Shown here: one piece after another, positions 1,750 through 2,059 of the stretch
Layout: every line of letters begins with the position of its first letter
Position numbering within the stretch: position 1 is the stretch's first letter
Source of the DNA: a virus
Lineage: Duplodnaviria; Heunggongvirae; Uroviricota; Caudoviricetes
Length of the DNA: 5,360 bases
IMG/VR virus record: IMGVR_UViG_2667527777_000004
Direction: 5' to 3' (one strand)
The notes under the pieces: model-generated
Seen by the model: the letters and a program-made list of their open reading frames with translations, nothing else
Told to the model about the DNA's origin: nothing
Database searches by the model: none
Program-made: the position numbers and the translations under genes

Positions 1750-1825
1750 GGCCCTTTAGCTCAGTGGTGAGAGCGAGCGACTCATAATCGCCAGGTCGCT
1801 GGTTCAAATCCAGCAAGGGCCACCA
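1750..1825 (+). tRNA. ileZ: tRNA-Ile2-like, anticodon CAU (lysidine type, AUA decoding)
   Basis: Acceptor stem GGCCCTT pairs with AAGGGCC; D-arm GCTCAGTGGTGAGAGC; anticodon loop CTCATAA with CAT at 1783-1785; T-loop GGTTCAAATCC; encoded CCA. Sequence closely resembles E. coli ileX-type tRNA as recalled; Met(CAU) cannot be excluded from sequence alone. Confidence 0.8.
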
Positions 1826-1826
1826 A

Positions 1827-1903
1827 CCGCCACTAGCTCATCAGGAAAGAGCGTCAACCCTTTAAGTTGAGTGTGCGAGGTTCGAGTCCCCGGTGGCGGT
1901 CCA
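1827..1903 (+). tRNA. tRNA-like gene with atypical anticodon loop; canonical positions read UUU (Lys)
   Basis: 7-bp acceptor stem CCGCCAC/GTGGCGG, D-stem GCTC/GAGC, anticodon stem TCAAC/GTTGA with loop CCTTTAA (C at position 33 instead of U), T-loop TTCGAGT, encoded CCA. T-stem carries one A-C mismatch. Isotype is uncertain; Arg(CCU) with a shifted loop is an alternative. Confidence 0.5.
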
Positions 1904-1905
1904 GT

Positions 1906-1981
1906 GCCGACTTGGCTCAGTAGGTAGAGCAACTGACTTGTAATCAGTAGGTCACCAGTTCGATTCCGGTAGTCGGCACCA
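1906..1981 (+). tRNA. tRNA-Thr, anticodon UGU
   Basis: Acceptor stem GCCGACT/AGTCGGC; D-arm GCTCAGTAGGTAGAGC; anticodon stem ACTGA/TCAGT with loop CTTGTAA (TGT at 1939-1941); T-loop GTTCGATTC; encoded CCA. Near-identical to host thrU-type tRNA as recalled. Confidence 0.8.
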
Positions 1982-1984
1982 TAT

Positions 1985-2059
1985 GCGGGCATCGTATAAT
2001 GGCTATTACCTCAGCCTTCCAAGCTGATGATGCGGGTTCGATTCCCGCTGCCCGCTCCA
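1985..2059 (+). tRNA. tRNA-Gly, anticodon UCC
   Basis: Acceptor stem GCGGGCA/TGCCCGC; anticodon stem TCAGC/GCTGA with loop CTTCCAA (TCC at 2018-2020); T-arm GCGGGTTCGATTCCCGC; encoded CCA. Resembles host glyT-type tRNA as recalled. Confidence 0.8.

Follow-up and report, generated by a model that had tools for sequence, protein, structure and literature searches.

A four-tRNA array in the late operon of a lambdoid prophage as a candidate rare-codon cassette with an atypical UUU member on an Arg(UCU) scaffold

tRNA clusters in the late operons of lambdoid phages have been recognized since Shiga toxin (Stx) phages were sequenced. One such cluster is ileZ-argN-argO of 933W-type Stx phages (Stx2a_F349, AP012530), in which the Ile gene is followed by an Arg pair with anticodons UCG and UCU in slots 2 and 3. 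The tRNAs of phage T4 are made from tightly packed multimeric precursors with spacers of a few nucleotides (nt). Among the T4 tRNAs are Ile(CAU), Thr(UGU), Gly(UCC) and Arg(UCU), which decode codons ending in A. Phage T5 evades the PARIS system with a tRNA-Lys variant of its own (PMC11464382, PMC12409363). Here we describe an array of four tRNA genes in a 5,360-nt stretch of viral DNA (Caudoviricetes; IMG/VR record IMGVR_UViG_2667527777_000004), the whole of which is referred to as the window. In order, the genes are Ile2(CAU), an atypical gene with anticodon UUU (slot 2), Thr(UGU) and Gly(UCC) (Table 1). The reading that we favor, with modest confidence, is that the array is a four-tRNA cassette for the supply of rare codons, in which slot 2 is a mutated, weakly active or inactive Arg(UCU) relic that travels along with the other genes.

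The window array shares its site with the Stx cluster, downstream of Q and pR'-tR' and upstream of the late genes. Its Ile2 gene is identical to Stx-phage ileZ (76/76), the same promoter-like element is present, and slot 2 has C1-G72, U73 and the A51·C63 mismatch in common with argN. However, argN has a UCG anticodon with U33, whereas slot 2 has UUU with C33. The window also has host-type Thr(UGU) and Gly(UCC) genes instead of argO, such that the Arg pair of slots 2 and 3 is absent, and no stx gene follows the array. An earlier note on this DNA, which was prepared from the sequence alone, gave an Ile/Arg/Arg set as usual for Stx phages, and ileZ-argN-argO indeed lies at the equivalent place in Stx2 phages. 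Related arrays are modular; in addition to the Stx2 arrangement, PPompW phages carry Ile2-'Lys'-Arg(UCU), and phi467 carries Thr-Gly alone, after stx. Another group, the Ile2-Arg(UCU)-Thr-Gly arrays of other E. coli prophages (IMG/VR loci L278, L276 and L148; RefSeq genomes such as RMDEC465), shares with the window the four slots, their spacing, the types of the Ile2, Thr and Gly genes and the slot-2 scaffold. The anticodon stem UCAAC/GUUGA of window slot 2 is also found in most slot-2 genes of these arrays. They differ in that their slot 2 is a canonical Arg(UCU) gene with U33, a paired T stem and mostly A73 or G73. T4 resembles the window in its tight packing and in these isotypes but is virulent, encodes eight tRNAs of its own lineages with no host-identical gene and no Lys tRNA, and repairs PrrC-cut tRNA. 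A literature search for ileZ, argN and argO together and for prophage-encoded tRNA gave no match.

ARAGORN and the Rfam model RF00005 (gathering score 29 bits) were applied to the window, and all positions are given in window numbering. ARAGORN called four tRNAs on the plus strand at exactly the coordinates given by the earlier note, which had described four packed genes with the same Ile2, Thr and Gly members and 1-3 nt spacers; the spacers are A, GT and TAT (1, 2 and 3 nt). All four genes exceed 29 bits, as expected of canonical elongator tRNAs, and because the E-values range from 5e-15 to 3e-7, the calls go far beyond what could arise by chance. U33 is present in Ile2, Thr and Gly, whereas slot 2 has C33. 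Minimum-free-energy folding did not produce a cloverleaf even for the host-identical Thr gene and was therefore uninformative on slot 2. Minus-strand Rfam matches to 'Plastid-ycf2' were rejected, as they lie under the gathering score of that family and mirror the tRNA genes of the opposite strand.

The origin of three members can be traced by identity. Ile2 matches K-12 ileX at only 68 of 76 positions, compared with its perfect match to ileZ, and decodes AUA after conversion of C34 to lysidine. The Gly gene is identical to K-12 glyT (75/75), and the Thr gene matches K-12 thrU at 75 of 76 positions, the sole difference being A9G at position 1914. This is a minority variant; A9 is present in most other arrays, which gives them a 76/76 match to the host gene. 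These identities mark host thrU and glyT as the origin of the Thr and Gly genes, in line with the host origin and near-identity proposed in the earlier note. In K-12, the stretch from thrU to glyT consists of 8 nt, tyrU and a further 116 nt. We found neither tyrU nor host spacer around the phage Thr and Gly genes, which are separated by TAT, so both would have been taken up from the host without these sequences, and Ile2 is the Stx-phage ileZ. In two contigs of IMGVR_UViG_2681813004 (L021 and L078), the host thrU-tyrU spacer and one half of tyrU come after Thr, which at first suggested a remnant of this capture. The contigs were dismissed as assembly chimeras because both come from one draft genome, the join passes through exact repeats, and the arrangement occurs in no complete E. 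coli genome. The join runs via the identical 76-nt Thr gene and breaks off inside tyrU. Phage tRNA genes that are identical to host genes seem to give rise to assembly chimeras of this kind.

These three genes are well maintained. Ile2, Thr and Gly remain undamaged in over 90% of arrays, and in 18 other arrays the C6-G66 pair of Gly is replaced by U6-A66. This change is fully compensated and intermediates are rare, which argues for selection on the structure of the phage Gly tRNA.

Codon use in the array-carrying phage PhiR47_1, taken over its annotated genes, was compared with that in a sample of 42 K-12 genes (50 kb). Per 1000 codons, the phage uses more AUA (7.6 versus 2.4), ACA (12.8 versus 5.4) and GGA (12.8 versus 6.0), as well as more GGG (17.6 versus 9.2), whereas AAA is used to nearly the same extent (37.2 versus 34.0). 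Since AUA, ACA and GGA are enriched 2- to 3-fold and AAA is equal, codon supply explains the Ile2, Thr and Gly genes but not a Lys(UUU) gene. AGA is also enriched (5.8 versus 1.2), so that codon supply would fit an Arg(UCU) gene too. Codon adaptation, as suggested in the earlier note, is therefore borne out for Ile2, Thr and Gly and fails for slot 2. Judged from its sequence, the window cassette represents a modified form of the set Ile2(CAU)-Arg(UCU)-Thr(UGU)-Gly(UCC), whose members would read the A-ending codons AUA, AGA, ACA and GGA that are rare in E. coli. As these four codons are used 2-5 times more in the phage than in the host sample, we propose that the main role of the cassette is to provide decoders for phage genes. 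The array is probably transcribed from a sigma-70-type promoter at 1712-1740, together with Q-dependent read-through from pR'. The resulting tetrameric precursor would be cut by RNase P and then trimmed by 3' exonucleases.

Slot 2 is the atypical member, as the earlier note had recognized from C33 and the T-stem mismatch. Both features were confirmed, with C33 at position 1860 of the anticodon loop CCUUUAA, UUU at 1861-1863 and A51·C63 at 1878/1890. The earlier note left the Lys anticodon unnamed and missed the homology to argN. The gene further contains C1-G72, C16, C31-G39, U73 (position 1900) and an encoded CCA, and the window copy retains all of the tertiary nucleotides (U8, A14, G18G19, G53-C61, T54-C56 and A58). 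Descent from the Lys lineage failed when tested against K-12 lysT, as there are no specific shared features and the scaffold differs throughout. In contrast, slot 2 aligns throughout with Stx-phage argN, and its D and T arms as well as its acceptor and anticodon stems are shared by argN and by Arg(UCU) genes of the same slot. A G3·U70 acceptor pair, the main identity element for alanyl-tRNA synthetase, is found in argN (positions 2628-2704 of the Stx2a_F349 locus, L002) and in slot 2 of PPompW phages (also L003 and L130); the corresponding pair of window slot 2 is G3-C70.

Slot 2 was sampled from IMG/VR through its flanking Ile2 and Thr genes (sample B, 120 arrays), which is unbiased as to slot 2 itself. 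The window sequence was found in 67 of the 120 arrays, and about 28 had a C4U/U8C/C11U haplotype with or without further changes. Three arrays carried Arg(UCU) with U33 on the same scaffold, two of them with the anticodon stem of the window gene. A wider search identified a family of prophage tRNA-Arg(UCU) genes with C1-G72, U33 and, in most cases, a fully paired T stem (CGAGG/CCUCG) and, again in most, A73 or G73. Arg(UCU) genes on the slot-2 scaffold occur at 27 IMG/VR loci, and 18 of these are Ile2-Arg(UCU)-Thr-Gly arrays, so arrays of the ancestral type still exist. Rfam scores are 53.5-57.8 bits for the Arg(UCU) relatives, compared with 44.4 bits for window slot 2 and 43.0 bits for argN. 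On this sequence evidence, slot 2 is best described as a derived gene of the Arg(UCU)/argN scaffold that differs by U33C, C35U, U63C, a change at position 73 and a few others. The gene is neither a standard Arg tRNA, an outcome that the earlier note had considered, nor a member of the Lys lineage. The slot-2 cloverleaf is well preserved over 22 haplotypes, with 94.6% of pair cells paired compared with 29-52% in slid controls, and three pairs, including 51:63, are changed on both sides. Every UUU slot-2 copy that we examined carries C33.

Compared with its neighbors, slot 2 is the least constrained member of the array. Extra stem mismatches, lost invariant bases or insertions and deletions affect 34 of 113 slot-2 genes (30%), compared with 7 of 113 for Ile2 and 10 of 113 for Thr. 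U8C occurs in 27 of the 113 arrays, and G18A was found in one genome copy. Among 5,426 complete E. coli genomes, in which counts reflect clonal sampling and frequencies are not independent events, the slot-2 gene is present in 798, and 279 of the 798 have the exact window sequence. In an evenly spaced sample of 40 of these 798 genomes, the Prokaryotic Genome Annotation Pipeline (PGAP) placed no tRNA at 21 of the slot-2 copies. The uncalled copies include a 1-nt D-stem deletion found in enterohaemorrhagic E. coli lineages, the U8C haplotype and the G18A and G52A variants, all of which fall below the Rfam level of E = 0.01. Furthermore, two of three phage records (ON470580.1 and ON470583.1) leave an intact slot 2 unannotated, although PGAP labels it tRNA-Lys. 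Since the same 77-nt gene is called by PGAP and skipped in the phage records, its score appears to lie near the detection threshold of tRNA callers.

A second gene with a UUU anticodon was seen in slot 3 of six IMG/VR arrays and six RefSeq genomes. It has a thrU body with G35U and A26G, is labeled tRNA-Lys by PGAP, and is confined to arrays whose slot 2 is either damaged or has kept Arg(UCU). We considered this gene (6 of 116 sampled arrays) as an independent second shift to a Lys anticodon and gave it no weight, because it occurs in only 6 of the 5,426 complete genomes and because, with about 18 Thr variants, chance alone should yield one anticodon hit. It may represent drift.

Published work on E. 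coli tRNAs bears on whether slot 2 would be charged and modified. Introduction of a C31-G39 pair in the tRNA-Lys of E. coli reduces lysine acceptance 100-fold (PMC1483225), and A73 is a Lys identity element (PMC9976931). In a test tRNA, U33C abolished formation of N6-threonylcarbamoyladenosine at position 37 (t6A37) by E. coli TsaBCDE (PMC8887486). Slot 2 has the UUU anticodon and lacks both A73 (it has U73) and a tolerated 31-39 pair, which is A31-U39 in native E. coli tRNA-Lys and C31-G39 in slot 2. The combination of C31-G39 and U73 predicts poor lysine charging, and C33 predicts that t6A37 is absent. At the same time, C35U in an Arg(UCU) gene would have removed the main Arg identity element while creating a Lys anticodon. 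Considering that C31-G39 and U73 lower charging, that C33 blocks t6A37 and that damage is in excess, we judge slot 2 to be a relic. The earlier note had left open a nonstandard decoder or a decaying gene, and the damage rate and the charging literature better support decay. If slot 2 is a relic, it would be a clean natural case of the decay of a phage tRNA gene, mislabeled 'tRNA-Lys' by annotation pipelines. New here is that the history of the array can be read directly, with a phage Ile2, a phage Arg(UCU) and two host genes apparently combined into a rare-codon set. Also new is that the commonest form of the array has exchanged an Arg for a Lys anticodon, together with a C33 that is almost never seen.

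Several observations weigh against decay of slot 2. No single-step intermediate on the slot-2 anticodon stem (U33 with UUU or C33 with UCU) was found in IMG/VR. The UUU/C33 form outnumbers the Arg(UCU) type that we tested about 50-fold (798 versus 16 of the 5,426 complete genomes), which is unexpected for simple loss of a useful AGA decoder unless the UUU/C33 form hitch-hiked. In addition, slot 2 is exact or has stem-preserving changes in all three of the phage records with the full array, and the loop CCUUUAA is invariant over about 20 otherwise differing haplotypes. The same commonness, presence in all three records and invariant loop, along with the strict linkage of C33 and U35 and the inability of codon supply to account for a Lys tRNA when AAA is not enriched, speak for a rival explanation that we consider unlikely. 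Slot 2 could be a working substitute for tRNA-Lys(UUU) that escapes recognition by the anticodon nucleases PARIS AriB and PrrC, allowing translation by the phage or lysogen to continue once host tRNA-Lys is destroyed. Cleavage by AriB is abolished by U39A and impaired by A41C and U16C (PMC11464382, PMC12409363). With G39, U40, U41 and C16, slot 2 lacks all three AriB determinants of the host tRNA (U39, A41 and U16). PrrC cuts 3' of U33 (PMC2610378); its cleavage is improved by t6A37 (PMC13191261) and is stated to require the cyclic form, ct6A37 (PMC12409363). Slot 2 has C33 at this cut site, and a block of t6A37 is expected (PMC8887486). The lack of AriB determinants, C33 and the absence of t6A37 thus predict resistance to AriB and PrrC, although our literature search yielded no data on PrrC cleavage of a tRNA with C33. 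The precedent is the T5 tRNA-Lys(UUU), which likewise combines the anticodon of the host target with substitutions at determinants 39 and 41 and C16. However, the T5 gene is of true Lys lineage (GGGU.. acceptor stem, A73, U33 and U31-A39) and its product has been shown to be uncut and to rescue infection, whereas slot 2 has an Arg scaffold, U73, C33 and C31-G39, and its resistance is predicted from sequence alone. If this explanation were true, the prophages of about 5-15% of E. coli strains would carry a ready counter to abortive infection of the PARIS and PrrC types, expressed continuously from the prophage's own promoter, and would have reached the escape solution of T5 by a second, independent route. 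An active slot 2 would also join the C33 block of t6A37, the link between t6A37 and PrrC, and AriB recognition of U39, A41 and U16 in one evasion mechanism of a temperate phage. What makes us doubt this is that G39, U40, U41 and C16 were inherited from the Arg scaffold rather than acquired as new adaptations, and that poor charging and decoding are predicted by the very features from which resistance is predicted. C31-G39 and U73 would lower charging at least 100-fold. Lack of t6A37 should weaken decoding by a tRNA-Lys(UUU), and the same is expected of slot 2. The U8C and D-stem deletion variants each make up about 20-25% of genome copies, which argues against strong selection. Finally, rescue from PARIS generally needs a resistant Thr tRNA as well, and the window Thr gene keeps the host AriB motif (U36-A-A-U-C|A41 plus U16). 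Resistance to tRNA-targeting defenses, which the earlier note had raised for the set, is therefore plausible on sequence for slot 2 only.

Three further explanations depart more strongly from a rare-codon cassette with a relic member. The whole array could be neutral cargo, in which redundant host-like genes and relics spread with the Q and lysis modules without benefit to the phage; the exact duplication of host genes by Thr and Gly and the occurrence of variants at conserved positions in all four genes point in this direction. We nevertheless consider it quite improbable, given the integrity of Ile2, Thr and Gly and the compensated Gly stem, the match of three anticodons to the codons most enriched in the phage, the conserved candidate promoter, and the persistence of the cassette in several modular combinations. 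Even less credence is given to slot 2 as an uncharged tRNA-like RNA that acts outside translation, either as a decoy for a nuclease or modification enzyme or as a processing spacer that helps its neighbors to mature. Poor predicted charging would suit such a role, and conservation within the gene is highest in the anticodon arm, with decay in the D arm. However, AriB is not expected to bind an RNA without its determinants, no observation speaks directly for a decoy or spacer, and with about 25 mutational events over 77 nt, we estimate that an unchanged 5-nt stretch would arise by chance about 20% of the time. It is hardly credible that slot 2 is a nonstandard decoder, with a shifted U-turn that presents UUA for ochre suppression, or that it alters -1 frameshifting where A-AAG sites occur, for example at the slip site of the tail chaperone. 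The loop CCUUUAA is unusual, and the array contains both of the tRNAs involved in slippage at the lambda G-T site, Gly(UCC) and Lys(UUU). Yet the loop has the normal 7 nt and is closed by C31-G39, a search around the PhiR47_1 G/T genes gave no GGGAAAG site, the genetic code of the host is the standard one, and nothing else supports nonstandard decoding. We therefore retain the view that the array is a rare-codon cassette and that slot 2 is its relic member.

The array is widespread. A 401-nt query spanning it was found at a coverage of at least 80% in 576 of the 5,426 complete E. coli genomes (about 10%), where PGAP labels the genes Ile/Lys/Thr/Gly. In the phage collection, three records cover most of the query (vB_EcoM-606R7, vB_EcoS-689R5 and PhiR47_1). 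When IMG/VR was searched with the T arm of slot 2 (sample A, 120 hits), Ile2-Lys-Thr-Gly was the commonest arrangement, accounting for at least 93 hits. Among species-representative genomes, the T arm and acceptor end of slot 2 were found only in E. coli and Shigella flexneri, and in both the array is that of the window. The suggestion in the earlier note that the array is unusual did not hold: it is common, hundreds of RefSeq genomes already have it annotated, and the array itself adds little that is new. Two side observations were made in related records. PanA antitoxin and PanT toxin genes are annotated at one end of the PhiR47_1 record (L134, 308-1352), and Stx2a_F349 contains a strong Rfam match to the small RNA STnc100 downstream of stx2B (L002, 4202-4413; 158.5 bits).

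Table 1. Coordinates of the tRNA genes and of predicted transcription signals in the window
Feature	Position	Strand	Description and evidence
tRNA-Ile2	1750..1825	+	anticodon CAU, ileZ type; ARAGORN, Rfam 72.5 bits; PGAP label tRNA-Ile
Slot 2, atypical UUU tRNA	1827..1903	+	Arg(UCU)/argN scaffold; ARAGORN, Rfam 44.4 bits; PGAP label tRNA-Lys
tRNA-Thr(UGU)	1906..1981	+	host thrU type, A9G at 1914; ARAGORN, Rfam 72.5 bits
tRNA-Gly(UCC)	1985..2059	+	same sequence as host glyT; ARAGORN, Rfam 64.9 bits
pR'-like late promoter (predicted)	1540..1568	+	TTGCAA-17-TATATT; consensus scan, 9/12 matches; overlaps end of Q gene
Short leader RNA ending in tR'-like terminator (predicted)	1571..1650	+	GC-rich hairpin 1619-1642, then T6 run
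Candidate promoter dedicated to the array	1712..1740	+	TTGCAA-17-TATTAT; consensus scan; followed by GC-rich CCTGCGCCC; ends 9 nt before Ile2

The array lies in the late operon of a lambdoid prophage, between Q with its pR'/tR' signals and the lysis genes. Pfam matches upstream of the array are DUF968 (14-505), RusA (506-871) and antiterminator Q (862-1551, PF06323), and those downstream are a holin of the P21 type (2570-2785), lysozyme (3694-4227) and Rz (4209-4691). The annotation of E. coli S51 shows this layout as well. Like lambda pR', the pR'-like element would serve as the late promoter, and the promoter followed by a hairpin and T run resembles the short pR'-tR' leader of lambda. Weak, sub-threshold Rfam matches resembling isrK and isrJ (22.5-23 bits) coincide with the predicted leader RNA at 1571-1644. 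In the related prophage locus L278, an isrK match at gathering level (2963-3039, 77.5 bits) lies just upstream of the tRNA array, and matches to C4 antisense RNA are also found upstream of that array. As for the element at 1712-1740, seven arrays with diverged spacers and upstream DNA retain its TTGnnn and TATTAT hexamers, spaced by 17 nt. This conservation reasonably supports a dedicated promoter of the array and suggests that the array is expressed in lysogens. A promoter-like match at 1973-2000 was dismissed, as it falls within tRNA genes and as promoter-like matches in total do not exceed the number expected from shuffled sequence.

Downstream of the array, the window contains runs of N at 2341-2350, 2859-2868 and 5121-5304. 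The first of these is flanked by near-duplicates (2134-2340 and 2352-2558, 207 nt, 98% identity), and the second lies between two copies of 127 nt from the 3' end of the holin gene (2659-2785 and 2869-2995, 88% identity). The interval between Gly and holin is 218 nt shorter in E. coli S51 than in the window. The duplicates around the 10-nt N runs look like contigs that were scaffolded together rather than a true tandem duplication, and the sequence that follows position 2868 may derive from a second prophage. An open reading frame of 209 amino acids on the plus strand (2999-3628), between the holin and lysozyme genes, has no Pfam match, and its PHROG matches are solely to families of unknown function (best, phrog_1085). 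It is present at full length in 18 of the 5,426 complete E. coli genomes, and at least one of these, RMDEC465, carries it beside a holin gene, about 700 nt downstream of its Arg(UCU) tRNA gene.

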